A stretch of 64,000 bases of DNA from Alphaproteobacteria bacterium (GCA_900768845.1 CAAGEK010000024.1:3001-67000), one strand, 5' to 3'. Positions 15,125-53,703 are shown, counted from the first letter of the stretch. Numbers and translations: made by a program. The notes: a model not told the origin generated them from the letters alone.

Positions 15125-15139
15125 AGAAAGGGCTGAAAA

Positions 15140-19373: not shown

Positions 19374-21503
19374 ATGACCGAAACATCGGATAGCGGATTA
19401 TTATGTTTGAGCGTGATGGCGCAATTATTTGAGCGCAAGACCAATCCGCAACAATTACGGCATTTGTCAGGCAAGGGATCGGGGTTGTTTGACGAAACGG
19501 ATATTTTGCGCGGCGCAAAAACGCTTGATTTGAAAGCCAAGGCGATTCAAAGCGGGATGGAGCGGTTGGAACAAACGCCTTTGCCGGCGATCGGGTGTGC
19601 ACGCGACGGGACTTTTTTCGTGTTGGCCAAGTATGCGCCCGATAAAGTGCTGATTCACAGGCCGGAAAAAGGACGGCCGGAAATCATCAGTGCGGAGGCG
19701 TTCGCGGCATTATGGTCGGGGCGGTTGATTTTATTCACTTCCCGCCAAAGTTTAAAAAAAATGTGGCGGCGATTTGAAATCGCGTGGTTCATTCCGGCCG
19801 TTTTGAAATACAAAAAACTGTTCGGCGAAGTTTTGCTGTCGTCTTTGTTTTTGCAGATTTTCGCTCTTGTTTCGCCTCTGTTGTTTCAGGTGGTGATTGA
19901 TAAAGTGCTTGTCCATCACAGTTTAAGCACTTTGGACGTGATTTTTTTCACTTTGTTGTGCATGACGGTGTTCGAGTGCGTTTTAAGCACGTTGAGGACA
20001 TATGTTTTCTCTCACACGACGAACAGAATAGACGTCGAACTCGGCGCGCAACTGTTCAAGCATCTGTTGGCTCTTCCTTTGGCGTATTTCGGGGCGAGAC
20101 GTGTCGGCGACACGGTCGCAAGAGTTCGGGAATTGGAAAATATCAGGAATTTTTTGACCGGCTCGGCATTGACTTTGGTCATTGATACGGCGTTTACGGT
20201 TGTGTTTTTTGCCGTGATGCTGATGTATGCGCCTTTTTTGACGCTGATTGTCGCTTTGTCCGTTCCGTTTTATGTCGTTTTGTCGTTGCTGGCGTCCCCC
20301 GTTTTGCATAGAAGAGTGGAGGAAAAGTTCAAATACGGTGCGGAAAACCAAGCTTTTTTAGTAGAGTCCGTTTCGGCGATCGAAACGTTGAAAGCTCTGG
20401 CGGTCGAGCCTCAATCCGTTCGCAAGTGGGAAGAACAGTTGGCTGCTTATGTCGCAAGTTCGTTCAGAGTGTCCAATCTGGCGAACATCTGCCATAACGC
20501 AATCGGCTTTATTCAAAAAACGACGTCGGCTTTAACTTTGTTTTTCGGGGCAAAGCTGGTTATCGAAGGCAAAATGACGGTCGGACAACTGGTGGCGTTC
20601 AATATGCTGGCCGGTCATGTAGCGGCTCCGATTTTGCGGTTGGCTCAATTATGGCAGGATTTTCAGCAAGTCCGCATTTCCATCGACCGGTTGGGCGATA
20701 TTCTGAACACTCCGGCGGAACCGGCGGTCAATTCGGGGCAGGCTCCGGCGGTCGCGCTAAAAGGCGACGTGAAATTCAGCGGCGTTTCCTTTCGCTATGC
20801 TTTGGACAAACCGCAAGTCCTGTCCGACGTGACATTGCACGTCAAAGCGGGGGAAAGCGTCGGCATCGTCGGTTCTTCGGGGTCGGGCAAAAGCACGTTG
20901 ACAAAGCTTGTTCAGCGGCTTTATTTGCCTGAAACGGGGCGGATTACGATTGACGATATTGATATTTCCACGGCCGATCCTTCTTGGCTCAGGCGGCAAA
21001 TCGGCGTTGTTTTGCAGGAAAACACTTTGCTGAACCGTTCGGTGCGCGACAATATCGCTTTGGTCGATCCGGTTCAGCCGCTGGAAAATATCATTCGGGC
21101 GGCGAAAGTGGCGGGAGCGCACGATTTTATCGCCGAAATGCCGGAAGGGTACGATACGATCGTCGGGGAACGCGGAACTTCCCTGTCCGGCGGCCAGCGG
21201 CAGAGAATAGCCATTGCGCGGGCTTTGCTTGTCAATCCTCGCATTTTGATTTTTGACGAAGCGACTTCCGCCCTTGATTATGAATCCGAAGCTTTGATTA
21301 AAAAAAATATGGCGGCAATCGGCAAAAACAGGACGGTTTTCATTATCGCTCACAGGTTGTCCACGGTTCGGACGTGCGACCGGATCATCGTGATTGAAAA
21401 AGGCGAAATCGTCGAAGAAGGAACGCATGACGGCCTTCTTTCCCGCCCGAACGGCCGGTACGCTTATTTGTGGAACTGTCAGATGAACGGAGAAGCCGTA
21501 TGA
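19374..21503 (+). CDS. Type I secretion system ABC transporter (HlyB/RtxB family) with an N-terminal C39-like domain lacking the catalytic Cys
   Basis: About 709 aa from ATG 19374. End-to-end similarity to the HlyB architecture: a C39-like N-domain (DSGLLCLSVMAQLF, with Ser where peptidase C39 has Cys), a 6-TM domain, Walker A (GSSGSGKST), signature LSGGQRQR and Walker B (ILIFDEATS). Confidence 0.9.
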   Translation: MTETSDSGLLCLSVMAQLFERKTNPQQLRHLSGKGSGLFDETDILRGAKTLDLKAKAIQSGMERLEQTPLPAIGCARDGTFFVLAKYAPDKVLIHRPEKGRPEIISAEAFAALWSGRLILFTSRQSLKKMWRRFEIAWFIPAVLKYKKLFGEVLLSSLFLQIFALVSPLLFQVVIDKVLVHHSLSTLDVIFFTLLCMTVFECVLSTLRTYVFSHTTNRIDVELGAQLFKHLLALPLAYFGARRVGDTVARVRELENIRNFLTGSALTLVIDTAFTVVFFAVMLMYAPFLTLIVALSVPFYVVLSLLASPVLHRRVEEKFKYGAENQAFLVESVSAIETLKALAVEPQSVRKWEEQLAAYVASSFRVSNLANICHNAIGFIQKTTSALTLFFGAKLVIEGKMTVGQLVAFNMLAGHVAAPILRLAQLWQDFQQVRISIDRLGDILNTPAEPAVNSGQAPAVALKGDVKFSGVSFRYALDKPQVLSDVTLHVKAGESVGIVGSSGSGKSTLTKLVQRLYLPETGRITIDDIDISTADPSWLRRQIGVVLQENTLLNRSVRDNIALVDPVQPLENIIRAAKVAGAHDFIAEMPEGYDTIVGERGTSLSGGQRQRIAIARALLVNPRILIFDEATSALDYESEALIKKNMAAIGKNRTVFIIAHRLSTVRTCDRIIVIEKGEIVEEGTHDGLLSRPNGRYAYLWNCQMNGEAV

Positions 21504-22822
21504 GTGACAAGCCGTCTTTGGAACAACAGTTTTTGCCGGCGGTTTTGGAAATCACGGAAACGCCGCCGTCGCCTTTGGGACGGGCGACGATGTACGCGAT
21601 TATCGGCGTGTTTTGTTTCGCTTTACTGCTCAGTCTGATTTGTAAAGTCGATATTATTGCGATAGCTTCGGGAAAAATCATTTCAAGCGGGCACAACAAA
21701 CTGATCCAGCCGTTGAAAAGCGGCGTTGTCGCAGATATTTTCGTGCGCGACGGACAGGCTGTCAAAAAAGGCGACCCGTTGGTGCAAATCAAATTCGAAG
21801 ACGCCGAAGTCAACCGCATCCGCTTGGAACGGGAATTGTTGTTTGCGTCAATGGACGTGGCGCGGTTGACGGCTTTGCTGGCGGAGAATCCTTTGAAATC
21901 GTTTGCGCCGCCTTCTTCCGCTTCGGAAGAGCTGAAAAGCAAAAACAGGATTTTGTTAAAAAACGAAACGGATAAAATCAGAACACAGTTGGCCGTCATT
22001 GACGAACAAATCGTTCAGGCCGAAGCCGAAAAGGAAACGGCTCAAGCGTCGATAAAAAAGATTGAACGCCTTCTTCCGAACGTCCGTTTCCGCGTGGATC
22101 AGTACCGCGATATTTATGAAAAGGGCAGTATTGCAAAGTCTTTTTTTCTGGAAAAAGAAAAAGAGTTGATCCAGTACGAGGAAGATTTAAACGTTCAACG
22201 CAATACTTTGGCGGAAATCAAAGCGAAATTGCAGGTTTTGGCCACACAGAAAGAGCAGGAGAAATTGAATTTTAAAAACGACGTCCTTTACCGTTTGCAG
22301 GAAGCGTCCAACAAGGAAAAGTTGTTAAAAGACGAATACGCCAACGCGCAATGGATTGACGGCTTGACAACGATCAAAGCCCCCGAGGACGGTATGATAC
22401 AGGAAATGGAAATCCACACGGTCGGCGGCGTTGTCACTCCGGCGCAAACGTTGATGAAACTTGTTCCGTCCGACAGCGTTCTGGAAATAGAGGCAATGGT
22501 CTTGAACAAGGACGTCGGGTTTGTGGAGGAAGGGCAGGACGTCAGCATCAAGGTCGACAGTTTCCCCTATACGCGATACGGCACGATTGACGGAAAACTG
22601 GTGCATTTGTCACGCGACGCAGTCGAAAACGAACAGCTCGGCTTGATTTATATCGCGAGAATTTCCATGTCGCGGGACACTGTCCGCGTGGAGGATAAAG
22701 ACGTCCGTCTTTCCGCGGGCATGAGCGTTTCCGCGGAAATCAAGACCGGCCGCCGCCGTTTGATTGAAATTATCCTGACGCCGTTTATGGAATATGCATC
22801 TGAAAGCCTAAGGGAAAGATGA
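21500..22822 (+). CDS. Type I secretion periplasmic adaptor (HlyD family membrane fusion protein)
   Basis: 440 aa from an ATG overlapping the ABC stop (ATGA). It has an N-terminal TM helix, a long coiled-coil hairpin and the C-terminal HlyD barrel (LVPSDSVLEIEAMVLNKDVGFVEEGQDV...). Confidence 0.9.
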   Translation: MSDKPSLEQQFLPAVLEITETPPSPLGRATMYAIIGVFCFALLLSLICKVDIIAIASGKIISSGHNKLIQPLKSGVVADIFVRDGQAVKKGDPLVQIKFEDAEVNRIRLERELLFASMDVARLTALLAENPLKSFAPPSSASEELKSKNRILLKNETDKIRTQLAVIDEQIVQAEAEKETAQASIKKIERLLPNVRFRVDQYRDIYEKGSIAKSFFLEKEKELIQYEEDLNVQRNTLAEIKAKLQVLATQKEQEKLNFKNDVLYRLQEASNKEKLLKDEYANAQWIDGLTTIKAPEDGMIQEMEIHTVGGVVTPAQTLMKLVPSDSVLEIEAMVLNKDVGFVEEGQDVSIKVDSFPYTRYGTIDGKLVHLSRDAVENEQLGLIYIARISMSRDTVRVEDKDVRLSAGMSVSAEIKTGRRRLIEIILTPFMEYASESLRER

Positions 22823-23867: not shown

Positions 23868-25148
23868 ATGGTACGTCCGTTCAACACAAGAAAGATTATG
23901 ACAAGTTTATTTTTGTTTCTGGGTGTAATTGCGTCTTGTTCTATGGCAAAGAATGAAAACGTCATGCACCCCGCCGGAAAAGAAAAGGCTGAAAACGTCG
24001 TGCAATCCGCCGGAAAAGAACCGGAAATAAGACCGAGTGATTATTCAAAAACAAAAAAGGAATACGCCGCCTCTTCAGTTCATCCGTTACCGCCATATCC
24101 GACCGAAGAACAACAGAATGAAGTTGTTTTTGACGAAATGAGATATGATGGTATGCGAGAAGCTTTTGAAATAATAAATAACAAATCATATAAAAAAATG
24201 CCTTCGTATGATTGTAATAAAGCGAAAACAGAAGTTGAAAAACTGATTTGTTCGAATGAAACGTTATCCGAATTAGATGCAAAAATGGCTTTATTGCATG
24301 AATATATGCAAGATTTGTATGATTTGGAGCTGACGCCATCCAGAGGGCATTTAGAATGGTTGAAGGCACGCAATAATTTCGAATGTAAGCCAAAAATAGA
24401 AAATAAAACGGACTGCCTTATATCTTTGTATGAGTTAAAAATAAGCAGTCAGTTAGCCGTTATTTTTATGCAACAGTTATATGCTGAAGATAGCATCAGG
24501 AATCGGGAAAATCAAAAAAATAAAAAGTTAAACAGATATTGGTTTGATTTGTTTTTAAGCCAAGGTTTTTCTGTCAATTTCAGGGGGGATTTTTTAGGAA
24601 GTCAGGTTGATTATTTGGGAGGTAGCTGCCCTGTGTTTGTAAGGATGAGGGGAATTTATCATCCTGATTATTTTACGTATGCCCTTGATCATGGCGCGGA
24701 TGTTAATTTGCAAAATAGATACTGTCCGCCGGTTCTATTTTATGCAAGCAGAGATGCAGATGTTGATAAGATTTTAGAAATGGGGGCGGATGTTAATGCA
24801 GTTTCAGGAAGCGGAGAGCCTTTGTTGGTTCATCGTACGGATCTTGCAGAAAAGATATTGCCATTAGGGGCTGATCCGAACAAGGCTAATGAATATGATG
24901 GAGAAACGCCTTTGATGAGGGGGGCGTATTGGATCAAAGCGAATTATTTGCCGGCGTACATTAAGTTGTTGGTCCGATACGGCGCAGATATAACAGCCAA
25001 AAACAAGGAAGGAAAAACCGCATATGACGTTTTGGTCGAAACGTATGACAATCCCAAAGTTTATGAAGATAGAAGACAAGAACTAAAGTTAACGGATGAC
25101 GAAATGAATAAATACTTAGATGAAGCAAAAAAATTATTAAGAAATTAA
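23868..25148 (+). CDS. Lipoprotein with a DUF1311 (LprI/lysozyme-inhibitor-like) domain and C-terminal ankyrin repeats
   Basis: Lipobox LGVIASC. The DUF1311-like cysteine pattern YDCNKAKTEVEKLICSNETLSELDAKMALLHEY...LEWLKARNNFEC. At least three ankyrin repeats (GADVNLQN..., GADVNAVSGSGEPLLVH..., GADITAKNKEGKTAYD). Confidence 0.7.
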   Translation: MVRPFNTRKIMTSLFLFLGVIASCSMAKNENVMHPAGKEKAENVVQSAGKEPEIRPSDYSKTKKEYAASSVHPLPPYPTEEQQNEVVFDEMRYDGMREAFEIINNKSYKKMPSYDCNKAKTEVEKLICSNETLSELDAKMALLHEYMQDLYDLELTPSRGHLEWLKARNNFECKPKIENKTDCLISLYELKISSQLAVIFMQQLYAEDSIRNRENQKNKKLNRYWFDLFLSQGFSVNFRGDFLGSQVDYLGGSCPVFVRMRGIYHPDYFTYALDHGADVNLQNRYCPPVLFYASRDADVDKILEMGADVNAVSGSGEPLLVHRTDLAEKILPLGADPNKANEYDGETPLMRGAYWIKANYLPAYIKLLVRYGADITAKNKEGKTAYDVLVETYDNPKVYEDRRQELKLTDDEMNKYLDEAKKLLRN

Positions 25149-33736: not shown

Positions 33737-33943
33737 TCAGGCGATAATGTCGGGAAGCAAGCTGTTTTCCAATGCGGAAATTTCATCTTTGAGAGCCAGT
33801 TTGCGTTTTTTCAAACGCTGAACGCGAATCTGGTCGAATCCCGCTTGGGAAATCAGGGATTCTATTTCGGAATCCAGCTTTTGATGCTCGGTTTTCAGCG
33901 AATTCAGTCTGGCTTCGATTTTTTGATGATTGAGAGATTCCAT
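33737..33943 (-). CDS. DUF465 (YdcH-like) small protein
   Basis: 68 aa with the typical ...RLKKRKLALKDEI... pattern. Confidence 0.65.
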   Translation of the reverse strand: MESLNHQKIEARLNSLKTEHQKLDSEIESLISQAGFDQIRVQRLKKRKLALKDEISALENSLLPDIIA

Positions 33944-35280: not shown

Positions 35281-35460
35281 ATGACGAGCAGTGAAAACAA
35301 CCATATTCAAGCATTAAAAGCAAAACACGCCGCTTTGGATGTCGCGATTAACGAAGAGCTTGCCAGACCGCTTCCCGACGAGGCCGTCCTTGCGAATCTG
35401 AAGCGTCAGAAGTTGAAGCTGAAGGAAGAAATCGAAATGAAGTCGGGAACGGCTGAATAA
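35281..35460 (+). CDS. DUF465 (YdcH-like) small protein, second paralog
   Basis: 59 aa (below the ORF-track cutoff): MTSSENNHIQALKAKHAALDVAINEELARPLPDEAVLANLKRQKLKLKEEIEMKSGTAE. An AAGGAGG ribosome-binding site 7 nt upstream and a terminator hairpin downstream. Confidence 0.5.
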   Translation: MTSSENNHIQALKAKHAALDVAINEELARPLPDEAVLANLKRQKLKLKEEIEMKSGTAE

Positions 35461-35481
35461 TTTTCGACGGATTTGGATTTG

Positions 35482-35514
35482 ACGCCGCTCTCTTTCACGG
35501 GCGGCGTTTTTTTA
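35482..35514 (+). terminator. Rho-independent terminator
   Basis: ACGCCGC...GCGGCGT stem followed by a T7 run. Confidence 0.45.
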
Positions 35515-35603
35515 TCTGTTCCGCTTGCGGAATACGCGGATGCTTTATACAAAAACAATAGACAAAAATCATAAAACCGCTTATCCTTGAAAGCAAGAAA
35601 TCA

Positions 35604-35609
35604 TAGGGG
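35604..35609 (+). repeat. G6 homopolymer within the ribosome-binding site of the 789-aa paralog gene
   Basis: CATAGGGGGGCGCGAAGAAAATATG: the Shine-Dalgarno-like element is itself a G6 run, 13 nt before ATG 35623. Confidence 0.45.
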
Positions 35610-35622
35610 GCGCGAAGAAAAT

Positions 35623-37992
35623 ATGACAGATGTAAAACCGTTTGCCGAATTGATGGATTTGGTTAATCCCTTAAACGGGACAATCGACCCTGCGGATGAA
35701 AAATTGGCGCGGGAGGTTTTGCAGGCTTTGGAAAAACACCCCGCATCCCGGGAAGCTGTCGACAATTGGGCAAAAGCCGGATACGAAGTCGTTTTCGCTA
35801 ATATGAGTACCAAGGTTTTTCACGGATCAAAGCGTTTCATTTTAAGCAAAAGGGATACTCCGGATAAACTGGCGGACAGTATTGTCGCTTCATCCGAAGG
35901 GCTGACGTTGAATCAGTTGAAGTTTGTCTTTCCCAAGCGGAAAGAAGAGGCGGATTCTTTCAAGGATTCGCTGTCCCGCATTTTAGGAAACGACGCTCAG
36001 CGGGAACGCTACGGCAAAATGCTGGATGAGCTTTATTCCCGCCCCGAAGGAAAGAAATTGTTGGAACGTTTGGCGTTTCACAATACGCGTGTCGCTTTTA
36101 ATACGGATGTGGTCGGAGATGAACGCGGAACGTTTGATAAGCGGTATGATTGCATCCTTTTGAACGAAAACCTGTCCGGCAAGGAGCTGTCCGAAACGTT
36201 TGAAACCTTGGCGAAAGAAGCCGTCGCTTATGCCGAACGGCCGAACCGTCAGGTGTTGAAAGAGGCTTTTGAGACAAAAACGCCCGAAGAAGAAGGATTG
36301 GCGGAACGTTTGATCGAAACGGCTTATAAAACGCCTGTCGGGGCGGAAATAATGGATCAAATGGCAAAGGCGGGCTATTCGATCCACTTTGAAAACATCC
36401 CTCCGCGAAAAGACGGTACGATAACCTTCGGATTTTGCAGTTTTTCCTCTCGCCGGATTGTTTTGGATCCGAAACATCCGTTTGAAAGCATGATATCGAC
36501 CTTTGTTCATGAATCGGAACACGCCCTTCAAAATGAAAGATATGCGAAAAGCGGACTGGACAGACGGAAATTAGACGTTGCATCCATGTTTAAAAAATCA
36601 CGCGCCATGGAAGCGGACGCCTGCGCGCACGAAGCGTTGTTCGCATGGCAGATTAAGGATGTCCATCCCGAAATCTATCAGTATAACCAAAGCGACGATA
36701 TAAACCGTGCTTTTATTCGTGAAATGGAAAACAGCGGCGATCCGTCCAAATCCATGTCTGCGGCATTTATGCAATGGTATGATTCCGAGGGCAGGCAGGG
36801 GAGCTATGAAAAGGATCATTTTGAATACGCGGAACATACGGCGAGATGCGGAATAGCGCGTCAAGTGTACGGATATTTTTCCGACGAGGCGTCTTCGAAA
36901 GAGGTTTTGGACGGCTGTCTGGTCGGGGGTAAGCCCTATGTCGAGCCCTCATTTTTGGATTCTCCGATTGCAACGGCGATTAAGGATGAAACCAAACAAA
37001 AGCTGGACGCCCTGATGCTGAATTATTCCCGTGCCGTCGAAACAAAGATGGATACGTCGTTATTCAATATGGCTTCCAGAGAAAAATTGGCCGCCGAGCG
37101 TCGAAAACAGGCGGAATTGGAAAGTATGTATCGGGATACTTTCAGAAATGAAGGTTTCAATAGTGAGGAGCAAAAGGCTTTAGTTCAGGGAATATTGGAC
37201 TGTCCGGAAGGGGAAAAGGCGGCGGAGCGTCTGAAGGGCGTTAATCTGTGGTTTGAAAAATCGGACAAGCCGATGGAATATATGCCGCAGGCAAACGCGC
37301 TGATCGTTGATCCCGATCGTATTCCCGAAGCCGCACGGGAAGCGGTAAGGCACAGCCGGCTTATCGAAGGCGGAAAACTGGCTCATAAGTGCGGAAATGC
37401 GGGTTTGCTTGCTTTCAAACCTTCGTTGTTGGTGTCGCCGAAAGAGGAAGCCCGAAGGTTGCAAAGCGTTATGGACGTTATGTGTGTCCGCGAGAAAAAC
37501 ACTCCGATGATGGTTCGGGAAATGAAAGCCCTGAATTATGAAATCGCTTTCAGCGATGATATATGCGGGGACAGCATCGCTTCCGTTCCGCGGAGGAGAC
37601 GGATGATCGTGTTGCATACCGATGCTTCAAACACTCCGGAAATGTTGGCGGATGCGATGTTAAAGGAAATGAAGAAACTTCCCGAACGTCATGCCGCCGA
37701 AATGCCGGTGGCGCGTTTGGCAGCCGTTGAAAAAATGCGGCAGGAAATGTTTGAAAAGGGAAAAATCGAACAAATCAGTTCCGTGCATCCGACTGCCGAA
37801 ACTCACGGCAAGCAACAATCCGCAGAAGAGCCGGCCAAGCTGTCTCAAGCCGTCGAAAAAACGGCCGGACAACGGCAATCCGGCGCGCCGTCCAAATCTT
37901 CGTTGCACGGGGTTTTGACTGAAATCGACCAAAAACAACGAATCGGGCAACTCCGGCAGAAAATCGCGTCCGTAAAATCAGCAGGGCGTTAA
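35623..37992 (+). CDS. Large hypothetical protein, member of the HExxH...EADAxAHE paralog family (putative zincin-like domain plus extra N/C regions)
   Basis: About 789 aa from ATG 35623. The central block FVHESEHALQNERY...RAMEADACAHEALFAWQ aligns with the other two copies. Multiple Cys residues and no signal peptide. Confidence 0.72.
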   Translation: MTDVKPFAELMDLVNPLNGTIDPADEKLAREVLQALEKHPASREAVDNWAKAGYEVVFANMSTKVFHGSKRFILSKRDTPDKLADSIVASSEGLTLNQLKFVFPKRKEEADSFKDSLSRILGNDAQRERYGKMLDELYSRPEGKKLLERLAFHNTRVAFNTDVVGDERGTFDKRYDCILLNENLSGKELSETFETLAKEAVAYAERPNRQVLKEAFETKTPEEEGLAERLIETAYKTPVGAEIMDQMAKAGYSIHFENIPPRKDGTITFGFCSFSSRRIVLDPKHPFESMISTFVHESEHALQNERYAKSGLDRRKLDVASMFKKSRAMEADACAHEALFAWQIKDVHPEIYQYNQSDDINRAFIREMENSGDPSKSMSAAFMQWYDSEGRQGSYEKDHFEYAEHTARCGIARQVYGYFSDEASSKEVLDGCLVGGKPYVEPSFLDSPIATAIKDETKQKLDALMLNYSRAVETKMDTSLFNMASREKLAAERRKQAELESMYRDTFRNEGFNSEEQKALVQGILDCPEGEKAAERLKGVNLWFEKSDKPMEYMPQANALIVDPDRIPEAAREAVRHSRLIEGGKLAHKCGNAGLLAFKPSLLVSPKEEARRLQSVMDVMCVREKNTPMMVREMKALNYEIAFSDDICGDSIASVPRRRRMIVLHTDASNTPEMLADAMLKEMKKLPERHAAEMPVARLAAVEKMRQEMFEKGKIEQISSVHPTAETHGKQQSAEEPAKLSQAVEKTAGQRQSGAPSKSSLHGVLTEIDQKQRIGQLRQKIASVKSAGR

Positions 37993-38004
37993 GGTAGGGA
38001 AAAA

Positions 38005-38916
38005 ATGGGAAATTCAGATAAACGTTATCCTCCGTTTCAGCTTCAAAACGCTTTGTGGGCGAACGGGGGAGCCGACCGCGAACGGTTCGGAAGCCTGTTG
38101 TCCGTTGCCTATGAATCCCGAAAAGGGGCTGATATGTTGGACGAGGTTTCAACGCTGGGGTACAAATTCATGTACGAAGGGCTTTGGAACGTCAATGCGG
38201 CGTGCAACCATATTACAAAAACGATAGTGATGGATTCGTATCATACGTCGGAAAATATGGCGCCGGCTTTCATTCACGAAGTCAATCACGCGTTGCAATT
38301 CAGCCGTATCGGCAAAGACGTGTCAAAGTTGAACGCGGCGGATTACATCGTCTTGCACAGGGCGTTGGAGGCCGACGCCTGTGCGCATCAGGCGGCGTTT
38401 ACATGGGAAATGAAAGACAACCATCCCCGAATGTTTCAAGAGGAAATGAAATCGCCGATAATGCGGGCGTATGCGGCCGAAATGGAAAAAAGCGGCGATA
38501 TCCGAAAAGCGATGCGCGCTTCTTTTGAATCGTGGTTTGATTTCAAGACGTATCGGGATGTTTATGAAGAGGGGCATTGCAAAGACGTTATGCACATATG
38601 TTCCTTGGCTGAAAAAAATCCGGACGGGGGGTATTTCTCCGATTCATTTTCCGTGGCGGAAATCTGCAAGGTATGCCATTTGGAAGAAAAGCCCTATATC
38701 AATCCCGATTTTTTGAAATCCGACAAAGCACGGGCGGTGTCTGCCGAAACAAAGAGGAAATTAAGCTCCGCTTTGTTGGAAGTCAGCAGGAAAAGCGGCC
38801 TGATTGCCGATAAGTCCGTTGCCGCTTTGCCTGTTTACAAGGAAAACGCCGCTTCGGAAAAGACGGCGGTTTTGTCGGCGGCAGTGAAAAAACGGGTGCA
38901 AAATTCCGGACGTTGA
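38005..38916 (+). CDS. Hypothetical protein, member of the HExxH...EADAxAHQ paralog family
   Basis: 303 aa with a good ribosome-binding site (AAGGTAGGG). FIHEVNHALQFSRIG...RALEADACAHQAAFTWEM. Directly downstream of the large paralog. Confidence 0.72.
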   Translation: MGNSDKRYPPFQLQNALWANGGADRERFGSLLSVAYESRKGADMLDEVSTLGYKFMYEGLWNVNAACNHITKTIVMDSYHTSENMAPAFIHEVNHALQFSRIGKDVSKLNAADYIVLHRALEADACAHQAAFTWEMKDNHPRMFQEEMKSPIMRAYAAEMEKSGDIRKAMRASFESWFDFKTYRDVYEEGHCKDVMHICSLAEKNPDGGYFSDSFSVAEICKVCHLEEKPYINPDFLKSDKARAVSAETKRKLSSALLEVSRKSGLIADKSVAALPVYKENAASEKTAVLSAAVKKRVQNSGR

Positions 38917-38990
38917 GGGATCGGGCGTTTTTCCCGTTTCCTGTCAACCGTAAAACCTTGGAGCGTGAAAAAGCGGGGGGTATCCTTTCC

Positions 38991-39234
38991 CTGTCTTTTG
39001 CTTGGCAATAGGGTGTTTCGGATGTCGTCGTCTGCCAAAATAAGAGGGGGGCTTTCGCACGCCGGCCGTTTCCGGCGTTGGCATCCGCGCCACCCCGACG
39101 GCATGAAAGAAACGCTTCCTTTCACCGCTCCGCCATCCCCCTGTCTTTTGCGTGGCAATAGGGTGTTTCGGATGTCGTCGTCTGCCAAAATAAGAGGGGG
39201 CTTTCGCACGCCGGCCGTTTCCGGCGTTGGCATC
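38991..39234. repeat. Two copies of a ~95-bp direct repeat (period 150 bp) in a convergent intergenic region
   Basis: Copy 1 is 38991-39085 and copy 2 is 39141-39234. They are near-identical (CTGTCTTTTGC[T/G]TGGCAATAGGGTGTTTCGGATGTCGTCGTCTGCCAAAATAAGAGGGGG[G]CTTTCGCACGCCGGCCGTTTCCGGCGTTGGCATC). They differ by one substitution and a G6 vs G5 tract. Each contains a CGCCGG/CCGGCG hairpin. Confidence 0.6.
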
Positions 39235-39296
39235 GCAACACGTCGGAAAGAAAGAGAAAACGGGGAGGGGGGGCCCTTTCCGAACATCCGGAAAAT

Positions 39297-43904: not shown

Positions 43905-44444
43905 ATGAACGGCAACATTGTCGGGAGTCTGCAATTTGGTTATTTGCTTACTCCGAGAGCTATGAAAAAAATCGTTGCGGGAACTGAAATAGGAGAATAT
44001 CTGGAACTTAACCGAATGTGGCTTTCAGACGTTGCTCCAAAAAACAGCGAAAGCCAAGCGATCAGCTACGCATTTAAATATATTAAGCGTGTCTGTCCGA
44101 TGGTCAAGTGGGTTCAGTCATTCGCCGATGAACGGTGCGGTCGTTTGGGCGTTGTTTATCAGGCGTCAAATTTCCTTTATCTTGGTTATCATCTGACGAG
44201 CTTTTTCGAGCTGGATAGCGAAACGTACCATGAAATGCTGCTGACATGTTATAAAAAAGGAGGAAATCGCGCTAATTATCTACGAGCGAATCTTGACCGA
44301 GCCGTTAAGCACACGTTGAGGCAATTTAGGTATATTTACTTTATAAAACAAAAGTATCGAAAACACCTGAATTTTGCGGTTTATCCCTATCCGAGGCCCG
44401 GAGAAGAAAGTTTTAATGAAAAGCTTTTGAAAAAAGCCGCATGA
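43905..44444 (+). CDS. Hypothetical protein (possible acyltransferase-like fold) in an islet adjacent to tRNA-Lys
   Basis: 179 aa, lower GC than flanks. Followed by a clear terminator. No confident family assignment. Confidence 0.45.
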   Translation: MNGNIVGSLQFGYLLTPRAMKKIVAGTEIGEYLELNRMWLSDVAPKNSESQAISYAFKYIKRVCPMVKWVQSFADERCGRLGVVYQASNFLYLGYHLTSFFELDSETYHEMLLTCYKKGGNRANYLRANLDRAVKHTLRQFRYIYFIKQKYRKHLNFAVYPYPRPGEESFNEKLLKKAA

Positions 44445-44827: not shown

Positions 44828-44903
44828 TGGTGAGCGTGCCGGGACTCGAACCCGGGGCCACCTGATTAAAAGTCAAGTGCTCTACCAACTGAGCTACACG
44901 CCC
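44828..44903 (-). tRNA. tRNA-Lys (anticodon TTT)
   Basis: Reverse complement GGGCGTGTAGCTCAGTTGGTAGAGCACTTGACTTTTAATCAGGTGGCCCCGGGTTCGAGTCCCGGCACGCTCACCA. Cloverleaf with a 7-bp acceptor stem (one G-U pair), a CTTTTAA anticodon loop, a TTCGAGT T-loop and encoded CCA. Confidence 0.9.
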
Positions 44904-46788: not shown

Positions 46789-47490
46789 TCATGCGTCGTT
46801 TTTCCCTTTCGCAGGGGTTCGCCTTTTCAAGATTTTCCGGAAAATTTCAAGCAGGGAATTTCCCGAAGAGGGTGGAAGCGAACCTCCCGAAACGGTTTCG
46901 GGATCAAGTTTTGACGCACGGACGGCGGCTTCCATAACAATCGTTCCCGCAATTTCCGGCGGAAGGTTCGTCGTTTTTGCGATGATGATCGCCTGTGCCG
47001 CTCCCGCAAACAGCCAACCCGTCGTCAGGGGATCGACTCCGCGTTTATATTGTCGGCGCACATATTCATACAACGGCGGCCATTGTGTTTTCAACATATC
47101 GAAAACGGGTTCTTGCGGCTGATGTTCTTCCGGAACCGTCAGTTTGCCATAGTCCGGCGTTCCCAAAGTTTGTGCCGCACGTTTTACGATTTCCAAAATA
47201 TCGGGAGGTTTTCCGCCGGCGGCGGCAACGCCCGAAGCGATGATATTCCACACGGACGCGGGAGCTTCCAACAAAGGCTGATTCAGCTCATTGCCAAAGA
47301 AATATGTTTTCCCGTCCGCGGATTTTACCCGAATGAACGCGTCTTTCGCCGGAATCATCCCCGCTCTGACGGCTTCGCGCACGCGAAGCCCGCACAAGCC
47401 CCCAAGATTCCCAAAAGGGTTTCCGGATGCGGATACTTTCGGGACAGGTTTTCTTCGATATACCGTATCGTTTCTTCCGTAACGGTCATA
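46789..47490 (-). pseudogene. Frameshifted hypothetical gene
   Basis: N-terminus MTVTEETIRYIEENLSRKYPHPETLLGILGACAGFACA... from ATG 47490 runs into a stop. The long 243-aa ORF continues in another frame (...REAVRAGMIPAKDAFIRVKSADGKTYFFGNE...). One indel separates them. Confidence 0.35.
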
Positions 47491-47541
47491 TCTTCGTTTC
47501 CTTTTCAAAAGCTCAAGCACCCGATCGGGATTTCCGCCCGT

Positions 47542-48321
47542 TTAAATGCCCGACTGCCTTTTTTTACCGTTTAAGATCGAGAGTTGCATCGGCGGTTTCA
47601 AATAAACTTTTCCCAAATCGACGGCGTCTTTTGCCATTGGAGACGGTTTATGGGAAATTATCGGCGAAGACGGATTTTTTTGGAAATCTTTTAATTTCCG
47701 TTCGGCTTCTTTCGCATTCAAGCCGTGTTCGCCCATTTGCTTTATCGCCGCGGTCAGTTCGTCGGGGGTGACCAAAAAGACGTGTCCGCCTTTTCCGTTT
47801 TTGCCGTGCCAATATTCTTTGGCTTTTTCGTTCATGGCAACGGATTTCTCATCGGCGTCCGGAGGTAAATCTCTGGGAAAAGGTTCTCCGGGATTGCCGA
47901 ATGTCATCGTATAAATCCCGCCTTTACCGGTCGAGCCGTACGGACCGTAAATCGCATGAACGAGATTGGTTTTCGGTAAATCTTTGGCATTGATGATCGC
48001 CACTTTTATATCGGCTTCCCCCCGTGTCCCCGGTTCGCGTACAATGTTGAAAATCTTATCCGTTTGCAATTCTTCCGCCGAAACGACGGCGTCGGTGCCG
48101 ACCCGACGATCCGTTCTCAGTGCAAAAACTTTCCTTCCGGGGTTTCCTTTTTTATTGATTTCTTCCTGATAAGCTCTGTCGGTTCGTGCCAGAATGTTTG
48201 AAATATCGTCCTTTGTCGTGCTTTTTACGGCCTTTGAGCCGATGACCAAAGAATTGCCGTCGGAATGTCTGATTAAATGTTCTTCATTATTTGAAGCGGG
48301 TAAAAATTCTAATTTTTCCAT
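47542..48321 (-). CDS. Hypothetical protein (island at tRNA-Pro)
   Basis: 259 aa from ATG 48321 (MEKLEFLPASNNEEH...). No recognisable family. GC lower than the core genome. Confidence 0.45.
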   Translation of the reverse strand: MEKLEFLPASNNEEHLIRHSDGNSLVIGSKAVKSTTKDDISNILARTDRAYQEEINKKGNPGRKVFALRTDRRVGTDAVVSAEELQTDKIFNIVREPGTRGEADIKVAIINAKDLPKTNLVHAIYGPYGSTGKGGIYTMTFGNPGEPFPRDLPPDADEKSVAMNEKAKEYWHGKNGKGGHVFLVTPDELTAAIKQMGEHGLNAKEAERKLKDFQKNPSSPIISHKPSPMAKDAVDLGKVYLKPPMQLSILNGKKRQSGI

Positions 48322-49215
48322 TATGATTCCCCCTGCATTTTTAACGGATGCAATTATACGCCATATCCGGCGCGAATTCAAATGAAGTGAATGATATTTG
48401 ATCCGTAAAAATTTAAAGGTTCTGATAAAATATGCGGGATGTAATAAACGGATGTTGGGGCTGGTGTGAAACCGTCAATTAGCATGATAATGAACGGAAA
48501 AAACGCGCAACGGATGATAAAATACTGTTTGAGTTTTTGGTATTGGAAAGTGTGTAGATCGGATTGAGCTGACGGATTGTTTTTAAAAAACGCAGACGCG
48601 GATGTTGAAAAATTGATGTTGTTTGCCAAAATCGTCAGGAATCAGTCGAAACTAAAATCACAATCCTGAACGCCCGTCTGTTTCTTGAAATACAAAAGGA
48701 ATTCGGTAGCTTTTATAATTATACTTTGTCATTTTCCCGATAAAAGGTCGTTCATCAATACTTTTCGGTATTTAAAGACCTCGCTATGTCGTTTCCGGAA
48801 GCCGATGCAATGAGTGGAAATATGAAAAATGCGGATTTCAATTTTTCGGAACGACGATAGGTTTCGTCCATTTACAAGCCATGGTAATTACATTTGCAGA
48901 AATAAAGACAATTAAGATAAAAAATCAAATACGTTTAAAAAAACAGCTTTTTAAATAATAAAAAATATATGATTTTTAGATTTCGAATCTCAGTTAATTC
49001 AATAAATCTGCAACAGAGATTTCAGAGAAAAATGTTTGCAATACCGTGATTTTGCACAGCATATTAAGGTAATTCAGGTAATCTTCAATATACTTTTTAT
49101 TATACATACTACTGTTAAAAATGTTTATAATGTTTAAAAATTTAATAAAAAGACTTCCCTTTAGGGAAGTCTTTTTAGGTTTTAGGAATTAAGTCTTTTC
49201 GGAAGAAAGCATTGT

Positions 49216-50280
49216 TTAAATTCTGGTGCTTTGTTTACGGCGCAGAGCTTCTTGCCAACTCATTTTCTCACCTCTGGCCGCAGCGTCAGCCTGCCTGTTA
49301 ACAGCAACAGAGGGATGAACACGCGTGCCGTCAAACTCATCATTTGTCATAAGTCCTCGTTTTGCCAAATCTTTACGAGCTTTGTCTTCATGGCGGTGTA
49401 CTTTCACATAGTGATCGACTTTGTCTTCCATCGCTCCTCTGACGGCAACGGCATTGGCGTTATCTTCATTCATCGCGTTCAATTGCATATTAAGCTGTTT
49501 AGTATTATTAGCCGCTGTGTTCACATTCTCAAGAGCCGCATTATAAGCTTCAGATGCGGGGGCATGGTCTTGCTTAAAAGTTTCAATCATTTCCGTATAA
49601 GGTTTGTTTGCCAACTTCTGCATATACTCATTATTTTCTTTATTTCTAAAGTAATAACCGAATGTGTCTCCCGACCCGACAAGCTTCCGGGTATTTTGAC
49701 AAATATGGTTGCATTGAGCCATCAAATCAACCTTGGCATCAGGGGTGCGTTTTAAACGTTTATCCATTTTATATTTCATCCGCGTGGCAAGCGGCAATTT
49801 TTCATAAGGCGTTTTGAGTTTATAGATATTCTCCGAAGGATGTTTTCCATCCGGCGTGTTTAAACCGGCTTTAATGCACTCCTGCAAAAAACCATAACAA
49901 ATTTCGGCCGTTTCTTTCGGGGGTAAAGCACTCGCCACAGGGCCGAATTTGCCGTCAATCATTTCGCATGTATAACCGTTAATACCGTCAAGTGCTTGTG
50001 GAATGCAACGTGAGCAATAGTCATCGTATGCAGAAACCATTCCTTCAAACTTCCCCTTTTGATCTGCCACATCTCTTTTCTGATCGGTGTTTTTTTCTGC
50101 TTCGGCAATTTCTTTTTGCTTTGTTTCTAATGCCTTCTGGTCATACTGCGGCATTTTGGCAACATATTCGTCGATATGACGACGCGCATCATCAACCGTC
50201 TGGAAATCAGAAATTTTAAATAAACTACCGTATTTAATCTGTAATAGCTGTTTTTCAATATTTGAGTGTTTTTCCGACAT
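49216..50280 (-). CDS. Hypothetical protein (low-GC island)
   Basis: 354 aa from ATG 50280 (MSEKHSNIEKQLL...). Flanked by very AT-rich non-coding DNA (48.4-49.2 kb). No motif recognised. Confidence 0.45.
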   Translation of the reverse strand: MSEKHSNIEKQLLQIKYGSLFKISDFQTVDDARRHIDEYVAKMPQYDQKALETKQKEIAEAEKNTDQKRDVADQKGKFEGMVSAYDDYCSRCIPQALDGINGYTCEMIDGKFGPVASALPPKETAEICYGFLQECIKAGLNTPDGKHPSENIYKLKTPYEKLPLATRMKYKMDKRLKRTPDAKVDLMAQCNHICQNTRKLVGSGDTFGYYFRNKENNEYMQKLANKPYTEMIETFKQDHAPASEAYNAALENVNTAANNTKQLNMQLNAMNEDNANAVAVRGAMEDKVDHYVKVHRHEDKARKDLAKRGLMTNDEFDGTRVHPSVAVNRQADAAARGEKMSWQEALRRKQSTRI

Positions 50281-50451
50281 GGCGTCCTCCTTAGCAACAA
50301 TCCATAAGCAATAACAGTGCAATTATATCCACAACACTACAATTGTGTCAAGATATTCTGCGATTTATTGTGAGGTCTCTTTAAGTTATAGACAGGAAAA
50401 ACCCATTTAAATTTGGACAACTAAACTGTTCCTGAAACAAGGGGAACAGGC

Positions 50452-50906
50452 TTGACCGGCGAAGAAACAATCGTATCCGCTTACAGGCGTGAGTGGAAAC
50501 GGTTTCAACAATATGGCGTTCCCCAAGCCTTCTACGCGGACGGACGCAATATGTATCATCTTGATCCCGATAAAGAGCATCACTTCTTTACAATGATGTG
50601 CGAAGTCTTGGGAATACGCGTCATTCCGCCTCCTTCTCCACAAGCTAAAGAATGTGTCGAACGATACGACGGAAAGACGCCTTATCCCTTTAACGAAACT
50701 TGACGGAGTACAAGATACGAAAAATCGCAAACGAATACTTGCAACAATATCCGATCGCTCATACGCCTTTGCCGCAATGGGCTAACAAATGTCTGATTCA
50801 TGGAAGTCCACTTAAAAATAATGATTGCACGGTTTGCTACAAGGGAAAATTTATCAAATCATCCCTATGTTCAAACGTACTCCGGCTGTCAAAAAATGTA
50901 CCGTAA
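50452..50906 (+). mobile_element. Remnant of an IS transposase (rve integrase-core C-terminal fragment)
   Basis: The 83-aa ORF ...AFYADGRNMYHLDPDKEHHFFTMMCEVLGIRVIPPPSPQAKECVERYDG... resembles the end of DDE integrase-core domains (GI+...PYSPQ.NG.VER). No intact transposase or terminal inverted repeats were found. Confidence 0.45.
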
Positions 50907-51065
50907 AAAAACTCTTTCAGGTCATATCTCCATCACCTGTAGAGACCGCTTTTTCCATAATCTGTCACCCCTTAAACTGTCCAAATTTAAAGGAGATTTA
51001 ACACAAATACGGTTTGTTAAATGTTTAAGAGAGGGGCGCGTCCGGTCTTTTGTTCGCAAGCTTTG

Positions 51066-51863
51066 TCAGTTGAAAATCAGCTCGTAAATCATATCGGGCT
51101 CTTCTGTCGTTTCGGCAGGCCTGTTTTTCCAGAGCTTTATGCGGATTGAAGCGGGCAGGGCCGTCAGGAAAAAATGGTTGCGGCTTTCATAAGGCGAATA
51201 ATTATTGCATCCTTGTCGGGCTTTGCAGGAATAACCGCGGTGAAAAAATCCTTGCGTCGGCGTAACGTCTGTCGACAGATTGACGCTTTCTTTAAAGCGG
51301 ATGTTGTGTGTTTTATCGGCAAAGGCGTACCCGTATCCCAAGTCGTTGGCGTTTGCGTCTTGAAGAATGATTGCTGAAAAAAAACGGTTTTTACGGTAGA
51401 AAGCCGTGTAATTTATATAAACGGACAGCGTATTTTCCGGTTCGTTGTAAGCGGCGCGGTAGGGAATCAGGTAATCGGCTTCGGAACATCCCGTCTTTGA
51501 ATAAAAGGAAAAAGACAGCATACTGACGTAAAATAACAGTTCGGGGTTTAAAATCCCGACGCTTTCCCGAGAAAGGCCTTTGCCGATGTCTTGCGATCCG
51601 TTCACGCCGAAACAGGTGATTTCATAAGCACTGATCCACGGCAAGCCGTCTTCGATCTGAAAAACGCGGTCGGCGGGGCGGTAAGGAGTGCCGTTTCCGA
51701 ATACGGGTGAATCGTTTACGGCGGCGATGCGGCGGTTCAAAATTTCTTTTTTGCTTAACCCGCTGAACGCTTGCATTTTTTTGAGCCGGATTTCCGTACT
51801 TTGCGCGCCGGAAGCCGAAAAACACATCAAGAGAAAAAGAAAAACACAACGCCGCATTGTCAT
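51066..51863 (-). CDS. Secreted hypothetical protein
   Basis: ATG 51863 gives the signal peptide MTMRRCVFLFLLMCFSASGAQS. About 265 aa with aromatic-rich beta-like composition. The longer ORF extension would overlap tRNA-Pro and is rejected. Confidence 0.5.
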   Translation of the reverse strand: MTMRRCVFLFLLMCFSASGAQSTEIRLKKMQAFSGLSKKEILNRRIAAVNDSPVFGNGTPYRPADRVFQIEDGLPWISAYEITCFGVNGSQDIGKGLSRESVGILNPELLFYVSMLSFSFYSKTGCSEADYLIPYRAAYNEPENTLSVYINYTAFYRKNRFFSAIILQDANANDLGYGYAFADKTHNIRFKESVNLSTDVTPTQGFFHRGYSCKARQGCNNYSPYESRNHFFLTALPASIRIKLWKNRPAETTEEPDMIYELIFN

Positions 51864-51962
51864 GTCCTTGCCGTTTGAGGAAAAGCCGGACATTTTAAAA
51901 GGGGCACAAGAAAAAATGCATGACCGGCCGCCGAAAATAAAAAGGGCTTTGCCTGTTTGAAA

Positions 51963-52042
<80 letters not shown>

Positions 52043-52111
52043 CCGGATCCGGCAAAGTGTCCGGCAGTCGTAAAAAAACGCCGGCAACCCTGCAATCATA
52101 TCGGAAACGGG

Positions 52112-52594
52112 TTATTTTTCAATATTAAAAACGGGATGGCGGACAATATCGCCTTCGGAAATGTCAAAACGCCGCGCACTGCCGGCTTTCATTTCCAAAA
52201 CGCTTGTCATTTTCCCGTCCGTCGTTATGACGTCGCGGGAAAAAGGTTCCGTATATTCGGCAATGTGGCGGATGACGCCCGATGCGTCAATGAAAAACAT
52301 ATCCAGCGACATGGGCGTGTCGGCCATCCACATCCCGATTTTTCGGGGCGTTTCAAACAGGAACAACATTCCCGCATCGTCCGCCATTTCCGTCCGGAAC
52401 ATCAGTCCGCGCTCCCTTTGAGCCGGACTTTTCGCCAGTTCGACGTTCAAAGGCAGAGGCGGCAGGTTCCGGCGTTCTATTTCAATGCGGGCGGTTTCAA
52501 AAACGATCTCCCTGCCTGCGGAATCGTCGGGCAGACATCCGCAAAGCAGGAACAGGCATACAAACCACGCTTGTTTCATTTGTCGTTCCTTCAT
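52112..52594 (-). CDS. DUF192 domain protein (secreted/lipoprotein-like)
   Basis: 160 aa with signal peptide MKQAWFVCLFLLCGC. The DUF192 core GLMFRTEMADDAGMLFLF...MWMADTPMSLDMFFIDASG. Confidence 0.65.
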   Translation of the reverse strand: MKERQMKQAWFVCLFLLCGCLPDDSAGREIVFETARIEIERRNLPPLPLNVELAKSPAQRERGLMFRTEMADDAGMLFLFETPRKIGMWMADTPMSLDMFFIDASGVIRHIAEYTEPFSRDVITTDGKMTSVLEMKAGSARRFDISEGDIVRHPVFNIEK

Positions 52595-52642
52595 AAGGAA
52601 AGCCCCCTTCCGGTAAAGGGAGGGGGCTTTTTCGGGAGAAAA

Positions 52643-53590
52643 TCATTTGTCACCGAAAGGGGAATAGGATTTCATTCCCACGACGTCTTTGGCGTCGTCT
52701 TTTTTAACTTCTTCGGGTTTGGGTTCTTCTTTCGCCGCGGCGACCGGTTCGACGGGCACACCGGCGGGAACGTCGATCGCAGCCGGTTCGTCGGCCTTGG
52801 TCGTAATATCCTTGCGATCGCGGGTGGCGGGGGATTCCATCTGCAACGCCGTTCTGCCGTCGATCGTTGACAGTTTCATCGTCGATTTGCCCTGATGGTC
52901 GATATAAGACAGGACGGCGGCCGCGGGCTGTGCCTGCAAAGCGACCGTTCCGCCGACGGTTTCCGTCATGGCCAGCGTCGTTTTGTCACCCGTCATGTCG
53001 ATCGTGCTTTTCGTACCGTCGATGGACAGTTCCGCCGTGCCGGAGCTGACAACGTCGACAGAGGCCGTACCGTTTCCTGTCAACCCCAGATAAATGTTGT
53101 TGTTGCGCGTGTCGTCGGTTACGGAAATCGAACGGACGGAGTTGACAAGGCTCATATTGATTTTGCCTTGATAAACGTCGGTCAGGGACAGGGAAGCGTT
53201 CTTTTCGTCGACCGACATGGCGGCGACGGGGAATTTCCCTTTGTGCATCATGGCAAACGAAGTCGTTTGGTTGTCCGCGCTCCACACGCCGCGAATCTGT
53301 CCTTCGTCATCCTTTAATACGAAAACCTGAGCCTCGACGACTGCGGGGATTTTCGCTTCGCCTTCCTTGGAAAACGCCTGTACCGCGGCTTTGAGCTGAT
53401 CTTCGGGAGACGCTTGCGCCGTCGCGGGGCGGTTGATCGTCAGCCCTCCCGAAAAAGAGGCGTATGCGGCAAAGCATACGAGTGCGGCAACCGAACGGGT
53501 CAGAAAGCGGCACTTTTTTTCCAAATGCTGAACGCGTGTTTCCAAATTTTCCATTTTCAACTCCATGTGAATTAGGCGGGCGTTTTTCAA
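52643..53590 (-). CDS. Hypothetical membrane-anchored protein with a repetitive Thr/Ser/Gly-rich beta-type periplasmic region
   Basis: 315 aa. An N-terminal short coiled coil, then a TM helix (SVAALVCFAAYASF), then a repetitive region and a K/E-rich tail. Start codon uncertain (53590/53566/53554). Confidence 0.5.
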   Translation of the reverse strand: MKNARLIHMELKMENLETRVQHLEKKCRFLTRSVAALVCFAAYASFSGGLTINRPATAQASPEDQLKAAVQAFSKEGEAKIPAVVEAQVFVLKDDEGQIRGVWSADNQTTSFAMMHKGKFPVAAMSVDEKNASLSLTDVYQGKINMSLVNSVRSISVTDDTRNNNIYLGLTGNGTASVDVVSSGTAELSIDGTKSTIDMTGDKTTLAMTETVGGTVALQAQPAAAVLSYIDHQGKSTMKLSTIDGRTALQMESPATRDRKDITTKADEPAAIDVPAGVPVEPVAAAKEEPKPEEVKKDDAKDVVGMKSYSPFGDK

Positions 53591-53703
53591 TTTGCATATA
53601 ATCTACGGAAAATACGTTAATTATATATGAATGGCAGTTTATTCCTTTTTTGACTTTAATGGAATCCCTTTTATCGTCGGAAGGAATTTTTTCCAAAGCG
53701 GTT

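Follow-up and report, generated by a model that had tools for sequence, protein, structure and literature searches.

The window analyzed here, a 64,000-nucleotide stretch of an Alphaproteobacteria bacterium genome (GCA_900768845.1, CAAGEK010000024.1:3001-67000), contains two neighboring paralogous genes for proteins of 789 and 303 amino acids (aa), and a G tract lies shortly upstream of the larger gene. The locus raises two questions: whether the pair is phase-variable through slippage in this tract, as an initial annotation had proposed, and what the two proteins are. Comparison of the locus with related strains and with the protein family suggested that the pair is probably an ordinary operon of two diverged paralogs of the family DUF6782, which are putative metalloenzymes with an effector-like C-terminal tail. 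The window comes from an alphaproteobacterium of the human gut that is related to 'Acetobacter sp. CAG:977' (hereafter CAG:977).

The two open reading frames (ORFs) are neighbors on the plus strand; the large one extends from the ATG at 35623 to the stop codon ending at 37992 and the small one from the ATG at 38005 to the stop codon ending at 38916, with a gap of 12 nt. BLASTP aligned the whole small protein with residues 230–511 of the large protein (35% identity across 285 residues, E 7e-50). The two proteins also matched Pfam PF20573 (DUF6782) with E-values of 3.4e-48 and 1.6e-36, confirming that they are an adjacent paralog pair. The bit scores were 164.5 for the large copy, 126.2 for the small copy, and 141.5 for a third copy located at 486–1403 (gathering cutoff 27). 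This third copy lies 34 kb away from the pair, and its identity with the small copy was 26% (E 7e-14). DUF6782 is described in Pfam as a putative metallopeptidase family with an HExxH motif, and it was the only family matched in a Pfam scan of the pair. At E <= 1, no relevant family was matched in NCBIfam (the aKG-HExxH family included, if the library contains it), no PDB chain was matched by sequence, and the PADLOC defence-system library gave no match; in the PHROGs phage library, a weak and generic 'metallo-protease' match was found and nothing else. We concluded that the pair are new members of a family that has been catalogued but not studied.

We analyzed the architecture of the large protein by sequence and by structure prediction. 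When the large copy was the query of a word-indexed protein search, nothing but the query was retrieved; an exhaustive search of representatives was used instead, and it identified six other proteins of 707–746 aa that align with the large copy end to end. Using the family hidden Markov model (HMM), partial matches covering model positions of approximately 22–90 were detected at residues 24–63 and 123–193, before the full domain at residues 212–491. Profile-profile comparison (hhalign) among five segments of the large-subfamily alignment gave pairwise probabilities of 72–98% with E-values of 3e-5 to 2e-13. In the AlphaFold2 (AF2) model of the large copy (pLDDT 81), five units with the order helix-helix-strand-strand-strand-helix were observed at residues 23–91, 124–204, 221–310, 515–576, and 606–684, and the third unit alone carried the HExxH motif, after which come the EADACA helix and then the C-lobe. 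The motifs were HESEH at aa 296–300 (DNA 36508–36522) and an invariant EADACA at aa 330–335. A linker at aa 714–767 was disordered (pLDDT below 50), and a terminal helix was predicted at residues 762–786. CAG:977 and six further clusters at 50% identity shared this five-module architecture (700–750 aa), with 26–36% identity to the large copy.

Hence, the proposal that the large copy has additional N- and C-terminal regions was correct, and so was the guess that it might be modular: these regions are four degenerate copies, approximately 80 aa each, of the N-lobe of the same domain, that is, internal duplications without the catalytic motif. The large protein arose by internal duplication to five N-lobes, of which only the third has kept HExxH and the helical C-lobe. 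In anthrax lethal factor, the PA-binding domain I is a degenerate copy of the catalytic domain and is used for binding. The large copy resembles lethal factor in carrying inactive duplicates of its own protease lobe, but has four pseudo-lobes instead of one. These four pseudo-protease modules probably bind substrate or partner proteins.

The small copy offered the simplest view of the complete domain. Its AF2 model (34-sequence alignment, pLDDT 89, pTM 0.86) began with two helices and a three-stranded sheet; the HExxH helix (H91, E92, and H95), a long helix, and a helical lobe came next, in this order. The motif is HEVNH at aa 91–95 (DNA 38275–38289), and EADACA at aa 122–127 lies on the second long helix. 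The HExxH residues were invariant in both family alignments. The acidic residues of EADACA on the next helix, E122 and D124 in the small copy and E330 and D332 in the large copy, were also invariant; the His that follows was not invariant in the large subfamily. An HExxH helix after a mixed beta-sheet N-lobe, as expected of a zincin fold, was present. This arrangement, together with an invariant acidic residue on the next helix, is a feature shared with zincins and gluzincins such as M1 aminopeptidases, botulinum neurotoxin (BoNT) light chains (M27), anthrax lethal factor (M34), Wss1/SprT, and NleC. In contrast, sequence identity to these proteins was just 6–15%, the helical C-lobe is specific to DUF6782, and catalysis by the present proteins is a prediction. 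The Glu or the Asp of EADACA is likely to be the third metal ligand, and both proteins are most likely metal-dependent peptidases. Furthermore, neither protein contained a hydrophobic segment (maximum 19-residue Kyte-Doolittle mean below 0.9), and both are soluble proteins without a signal peptide or a transmembrane segment.

DUF6782 proteins were then surveyed more widely. A search of 1.84 billion 50%-identity representatives yielded 233 clusters at E <= 1e-3 and 89 at E <= 1e-10, and a scan of species-representative genomes yielded 41 DUF6782 loci, nearly all in metagenome-assembled genomes (MAGs) of gut, rumen, or faecal Alphaproteobacteria. The nearest relatives were CAG:977 (locus L009) and MAG E04_bin108 (L010). 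CAG:977 has the same large-then-small gene order, and its large protein was 33% identical over 739 aa (E 9e-119). In the relatives (L009–L047), the genes formed tandem arrays of 2–7 diverged copies, for example at 2844–6846 of L014, 2970–6846 of L022, and 1–11413 of L027. Most arrays were located at one conserved chromosomal site between nuoN-birA-rnj and ruvX/mscS-gatCAB, and some genomes had two or three separate DUF6782 loci. One array with the usual synteny, L019 (CAVCSV010000009.1), was deposited as Limosilactobacillus gorillae, which is probably a binning or labelling error.

A basic tail was common in the family. Among 138 representatives of at least 250 aa, 106 (77%) ended in Arg, including 45 in Gly-Arg, and the last 25 residues had a mean net charge of +4.5. 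All three copies of the window end in R (SAGR in the large, NSGR in the small, and ARNR in the third copy), compared with 5 of the 45 other ORFs of the window. The tail of the small copy ends in KKRVQNSGR, and the net charge of the last 30 residues was +4, +4, and +5 in the large, small, and third copies, respectively. All family members share a disordered linker and a basic, usually Arg-ended C-terminal helix, and this tail may be an export signal.

The G tract was determined to be G5 at 35606–35610 (AGGGGGCGCG), with A35605 before it and CGCG after it (TAGGGGGCGCG; wider sequence …AAATCATAGGGGGCGCGAAGAAAATATG…). It had been described as G6, within AGGGGGG at 35604–35609, at 13 nt from the ATG; this string is absent, the coordinates were shifted, and 12 nt lie between the last G (35610) and the first base of the ATG (35623). 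Its assignment as a Shine-Dalgarno (SD) element held in part. AGGGGG is SD-like and pairs with the canonical anti-SD, with a predicted energy of −9.3 kcal/mol when G·U wobble is assumed (−8.8 to −12.0 kcal/mol for other genes here), but its spacing is unusual: the aligned SD spacing was 3–7 nt in 19 of the 21 window genes with a recognizable SD, and the 12 nt of the large gene is an outlier. The predicted duplex energies were −7.5, −9.3, and −11.0 kcal/mol for G4, G5, and G6, respectively. With a slip of one nucleotide, the spacing would become 11 or 13 nt instead of 12 nt and the duplex energy would shift by approximately 2 kcal/mol, which would be a quantitative change at most. In addition, the window contained 34 G5, 9 G6, 1 G7, 18 C5, and 4 C6 runs; these 66 G/C runs of at least 5 nt, compared with 81 ± 9 expected from first-order Markov simulations, were if anything depleted.

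The strain contigs in which length variation of the tract was examined were obtained through the clusters of the two proteins at 90% identity. Among them, L001 corresponds to the window and L004 is a duplicate of L003; the compared set consisted of the window and six other samples, whose contigs showed 96–99% nucleotide identity to the window. ATAGGGGGCGCG was found in six of the seven distinct contigs. The remaining one, L005, had ATAGGGGGGGCG, in which the substitution C35611G produces G7 without a change in total length. No length change was found at the tract site across the seven contigs. The G-runs at 38975, 39046, 39196, and 39267 served as an internal control and varied in length in the same assemblies; the run at 38975 was read as G6, G4, G4, GGAGG, G6, and G7 across contigs. 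Variation of the tract would therefore have shown up in these assemblies. In JGI metagenomes, a scan that allowed a variable gap at the tract returned no match to the locus.

Orthologs gave a similar picture. In CAG:977, the G5 position aligned with GTTTCCG, that is, the tract was absent; a GGAG lies 6 nt from the ATG of this ortholog, at a site occupied by GAAG in the window. Among 75 DUF6782 genes of related loci, eight had a G run of at least 5 nt within 30 nt upstream, typically CAGGGGG, an ordinary G-rich SD placed at a normal spacing of 6–7 nt to the ATG. Homopolymer contingency tracts are usually approximately 7–8 nt or longer, and the G5 tract is below this length. The locus resembles contingency loci of Neisseria, Haemophilus, Campylobacter, and Helicobacter in having a G run upstream of a start codon and an accessory-looking multi-copy family. 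Unlike those loci, its run is 5 nt, lacks length polymorphism in the strains compared, is absent from the ortholog, and is not accompanied by an enrichment of runs; moreover, it lies in the 5' untranslated region (UTR), where ±1 nt affects neither the frame nor a promoter spacer. The tract is best seen as the G-rich core of an SD-like AGGGGG unusually far from the ATG rather than as a slippage switch.

Transcription of the pair appeared to be independent of the upstream gene. A hairpin with a 10-bp stem (7 GC pairs) followed by TTTTTTT was identified at 35481–35513, with the same sequence in every strain contig. This terminator-like hairpin separates the transcription of the pair from upstream and would close the upstream gene as an intrinsic terminator. 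Downstream of it, the hexamers TAGACA (35559–35564) and TATCCT (35582–35587), with a 17-nt spacer, matched 9 of the 12 sigma-70 consensus positions. The surrounding block, TATACAAAAA·AATAGACAAAAA·CATAAAA·CG··TAT·CT (window 35546–35587), was approximately 90% conserved upstream of the CAG:977 ortholog, in contrast to only 33% identity between the two large proteins. We infer that this block acts as a promoter, and transcription would most likely start just 3' of 35559–35587. No terminator was found in the 12-nt spacer at 37993–38004. The short gap, the small gene's own SD-like element (5 nt before its ATG), and the absence of a terminator between the genes suggested co-transcription, and the simplest reading is that the two genes probably form a two-gene operon. 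A terminator after the small gene was also considered and rejected, its fold being no better than that of shuffled sequence.

The start of the large gene was reconsidered, as some gene callers use TTG 35587 (801 aa), which would place the G run inside the ORF. As this TTG runs into the conserved −10 hexamer and has no counterpart in CAG:977, ATG 35623 is the likely start. The N-terminus of the large protein of CAG:977 aligned with the ATG 35623 start.

The strain contigs also indicated how the two genes evolve. The large gene was 97.0–97.6% identical at the nucleotide level to those of four strains and was the most variable gene of the neighborhood, with 24–31 nonsynonymous and 22–31 synonymous codon differences. 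The PFK gene next door showed 99.1–99.9% nucleotide identity and no nonsynonymous changes. For the small copy, 2–4 nonsynonymous and 14–15 synonymous changes were counted in each of the three strains that cover its full length; in L003, where just 601 nt were covered, one change of each kind was found. Variation in the large protein was unevenly distributed: residues 1–204 contained one variable site and the tail 762–789 none, and residues 205–290, near the active site, were a hot spot. Within it, the loop at aa 262–274 (36406–36444), beside the active-site sheet, differed between the window and the four strains at 7 of 13 residues and by a one-codon (3-nt) indel at 36421. This hot spot could reflect diversifying selection or a recombination patch at the edge that would bind substrate, and the uneven variation argues against simple decay in the window strain.

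In the lineage of L007 and L008 (96% identical), on the other hand, the large gene is a pseudogene. Both contigs shared K27 to TAA (35701), E142 to a stop codon (36046), and an A6-to-A7 change at 37730, and the small gene had a different frameshift in each (window-equivalent positions 38887 and 38250). The CoA-activase gene was also split in L007 and L008, and TldD in L008; assembly error may contribute. The loss in this lineage is ordinary decay and not a reversible G-run switch. Frameshifted cluster members of 214–566 aa were considered as evidence for slippage and rejected, because they are interrupted at A6 runs and nonsense codons rather than at the G run. An apparent 151-bp deletion in L002 was rejected as a contig end.

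Two alternatives concern the large gene. If the G tract were its ribosome-binding site, slipped-strand mispairing could alter the strength or spacing of the SD and give phase-variable expression. The complementarity of AGGGGG to the anti-SD, the strengthening of the predicted duplex with tract length, the G7 of L005, and the length changes of G-runs in the neighboring intergenic region all fit this possibility. However, the tract is G5 and not G6, below the usual 7–8 nt of contingency homopolymers, and did not change in length in any of the seven contigs, the G7 having arisen by substitution; it is absent in the CAG:977 ortholog, it lies 12 nt from the ATG instead of 3–7 nt, G/C runs are not enriched in the window, and the sister lineage was inactivated by nonsense and A-tract mutations. 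For these reasons phase variation is unsupported; we consider it highly improbable, and no contingency-locus biology should rest on this tract. It is also very unlikely that the large copy is a decaying gene without a function of its own and that the small copy alone matters. Such decay would explain the roughly equal numbers of nonsynonymous and synonymous changes among strains, the nonsense codons and frameshift common to L007 and L008, and the poor placement of the SD-like element. Against it, the window and four other strains retain an intact frame of 789–790 codons, six other clusters and CAG:977 share the five-module architecture at 26–36% identity, R1–R2 (aa 1–204) and the tail (762–789) are nearly invariant while changes cluster at aa 205–290, and HExxH and EADACA are intact.

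The chemistry and the site of action of the proteins have to be weighed as well. HExxH proteins labelled as peptidases have been shown in some cases to be alpha-ketoglutarate (alpha-KG) oxygenases (PMC12636437), and the present proteins could likewise be HExxH metalloenzymes of other chemistry, such as Fe(II)/alpha-KG peptide hydroxylases like ChlH, BpmH, and PflC. Structural similarity to the HExxH domain of ChlH was indeed present, but sequence identity to ChlH was just 8–11%, no NCBIfam match was obtained at E <= 1, and there was no sequence-family match to ChlH, BpmH, PflC/PosC, or SjiH (IPR026337). A context of peptides that are made by the ribosome and modified after translation (RiPPs) was not found either: no radical SAM, precursor peptide, or MNIO gene adjoined the pair or the arrays. 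We regard a non-hydrolytic chemistry as unlikely; if it were correct, the newly recognized chemistry would extend outside RiPP clusters. As for the site of action, the proteins might be cytoplasmic, non-exported proteases for regulation or quality control, the tail serving for auto-inhibition in the active-site cleft or for binding to membrane or nucleic acid. C-terminal tails that block the cleft occur in minimal gluzincins such as proabylysin. The lack of a signal peptide, the position of arrays among housekeeping genes without adjoining secretion genes, and the purifying selection on the small copy among strains also agree with a cytoplasmic role, which seems possible but is not the explanation that we favor. 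The tandem expansion to 2–7 copies in one host-associated clade, the loss in strains, and fold neighbors among toxins and effectors (BoNT light chain, lethal factor, and NleC) fit an effector role better, although they are not decisive, and the present data do not separate the cytoplasmic reading from export. The tail, the lineage-restricted arrays, and the strain turnover would fit exported or targeted effector-like enzymes with the tail as recognition signal. An Arg motif forms part of the consensus of the C-terminal signals of VirB/D4 type IV secretion system (T4SS) substrates and is important in them (PMC10025392). Like the family tail, those of Agrobacterium VirF, VirE2, and VirE3 and Bartonella Bep are Arg/Lys-rich and unstructured or helical, and these substrates also have no N-terminal signal peptide; in contrast, an Arg as last residue is not in the published consensus, and the present proteins are candidates for export. 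Most speculatively, and in our judgment doubtful, DUF6782 arrays could encode an unrecognized group of exported effector metalloenzymes in commensal Alphaproteobacteria of gut and rumen, with the Arg-ended tail as signal, and the large copy could be a 'poly-pseudoprotease' whose four dead lobes are substrate or translocon adaptors, as in domain I of lethal factor. If the tail were an export signal, it would give a first handle on effector biology in a poorly known gut lineage.

The preferred explanation, an ordinary operon of two putative DUF6782 metalloenzymes with an effector-like tail, has several points to its disadvantage. The best structural matches were alpha-KG/Fe HExxH oxygenases and not peptidases, and the last approximately 25 residues of the small copy were modelled with low confidence. 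The literature search found no paper naming DUF6782. The promoter and the operon structure are predictions only, and no hairpin more stable than shuffled sequence was found downstream of the small gene (z −0.22). No T4SS gene was found in the 64-kb window (no virB/virD4 among the scanned ORFs) or next to the arrays, no secretion-system gene adjoins the pair or the arrays of relatives, and the conserved array neighbors are the housekeeping genes nuoN, birA, rnj, ruvX, mscS, and gatCAB. Finally, assemblies are consensus sequences, and rare within-population length variants at G5 could go unseen. Beyond the Pfam entry for DUF6782, the five-module form, the tandem arrays, and the Arg-ended basic tail were not found in the literature searched. 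What remains, an unstudied HExxH family of host-associated Alphaproteobacteria with tandem arrays, a five-lobe member, and a conserved Arg-ended tail, is of modest interest.

Table 1. Coordinates of the DUF6782 genes, protein modules, and predicted regulatory elements in the window.
Feature	Coordinates	Strand	Basis
Third DUF6782 paralog, unlinked, 305 aa, ending in AARNR	486..1403	-	Pfam 3.6e-41
Intrinsic-terminator-like hairpin and T7, ending the upstream 59-aa DUF465 gene	35481..35513	+	10-bp stem and T7, identical in strain contigs
Conserved promoter-like block, TATACAAAAACAATAGACAAAAATCATAAAACCGCTTATCCT	35546..35587	+	Sigma-70 match and CAG:977 conservation
AGGGGG, SD-like, 5' UTR, 12 nt before ATG	35605..35610	+	Strain contigs, CAG:977, anti-SD pairing
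Large DUF6782 gene, 789 aa	35623..37992	+	BLASTP, Pfam, AF2, ortholog alignment
R1, aa 23-91, degenerate zincin N-lobe (helix-helix-three strands-helix), without HExxH	35689..35895	+	hmmsearch, hhalign, AF2
R2, aa 124-204, degenerate N-lobe, without HExxH	35992..36234	+	hmmsearch, hhalign, AF2
R3 with catalytic helix and helical C-lobe, aa 221-506, sole complete DUF6782 domain	36283..37140	+	
R4, aa 515-589, degenerate N-lobe, without HExxH	37165..37389	+	hhalign 72-96%, AF2
R5, aa 606-689, degenerate N-lobe, without HExxH	37438..37689	+	hhalign 97-98% to R1-R3, 72% to R4; AF2
Basic C-terminal helix, ending in KIASVKSAGR	37906..37989	+	AF2; invariant among strains
Spacer between large and small genes; SD-like GGTAGGG (37993-37999), 5 nt before ATG	37993..38004	+	
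Small DUF6782 gene, 303 aa, one complete domain	38005..38916	+	BLASTP, Pfam, AF2

The pair is flanked in the window by TldD, DUF465, PFK, and CoA-enzyme-activase genes. Two DUF465 genes surround PFK, at 33737–33943 on the minus strand (68 aa) and at 35281–35460 on the plus strand (59 aa), and this arrangement is kept in all strain contigs. Downstream, a 380-bp region is common to the small gene and a convergent gene for a 1405-aa CoA-enzyme activase. This intergenic region (38917–39296) contains a tandem duplication of approximately 150 bp, with copies at 38989–39085 and 39139–39234 that differ in their G run (G6 at 39046 and G5 at 39196), and G6 (38975) and G7 (39267) runs lie near the repeats. 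L007 and L008 have one repeat unit instead of two. The repeat was not found elsewhere in the window, and Rfam detected nothing in 38917–39296.

At 19323–22822, an ABC transporter with an N-terminal Peptidase_C39-type domain is encoded beside an HlyD-family protein, forming a pair like that of a type I secretion system (T1SS). By eye, DSGLLCL stands where the catalytic Cys would be expected in the C39 domain, which may therefore be a non-proteolytic C39-like domain. A double-glycine leader in the small copy (WANGG, then ADRE) was considered, with the small copy as a substrate of this exporter; it was rejected, as the family alignment showed no conservation of the GG and the segment was modelled with confidence as a helix. 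A 426-aa ankyrin-repeat protein is encoded 1 kb downstream of the T1SS-like pair (23868–25148).

A type I restriction-modification island occupies approximately 7651–19025; it contains an HsdS fragment, HsdM, a RhuM-family protein, and a RhuM-Fic fusion, followed by a 458-aa ORF, HsdS, a 214-aa ORF, HsdR (1060 aa), and a YgjP-like metallopeptidase. A Mom-family protein at 43905–44444 (Pfam 2.3e-60) lies beside tRNA-Lys(UUU) at 44828–44903, and the two may represent a relic of a mobile element or of a prophage integration site. On the minus strand at 46789–54336, six ORFs of 210–368 aa had no Pfam match at E <= 1e-4, and tRNA-Pro (51963–52039) overlaps the start of one of them.

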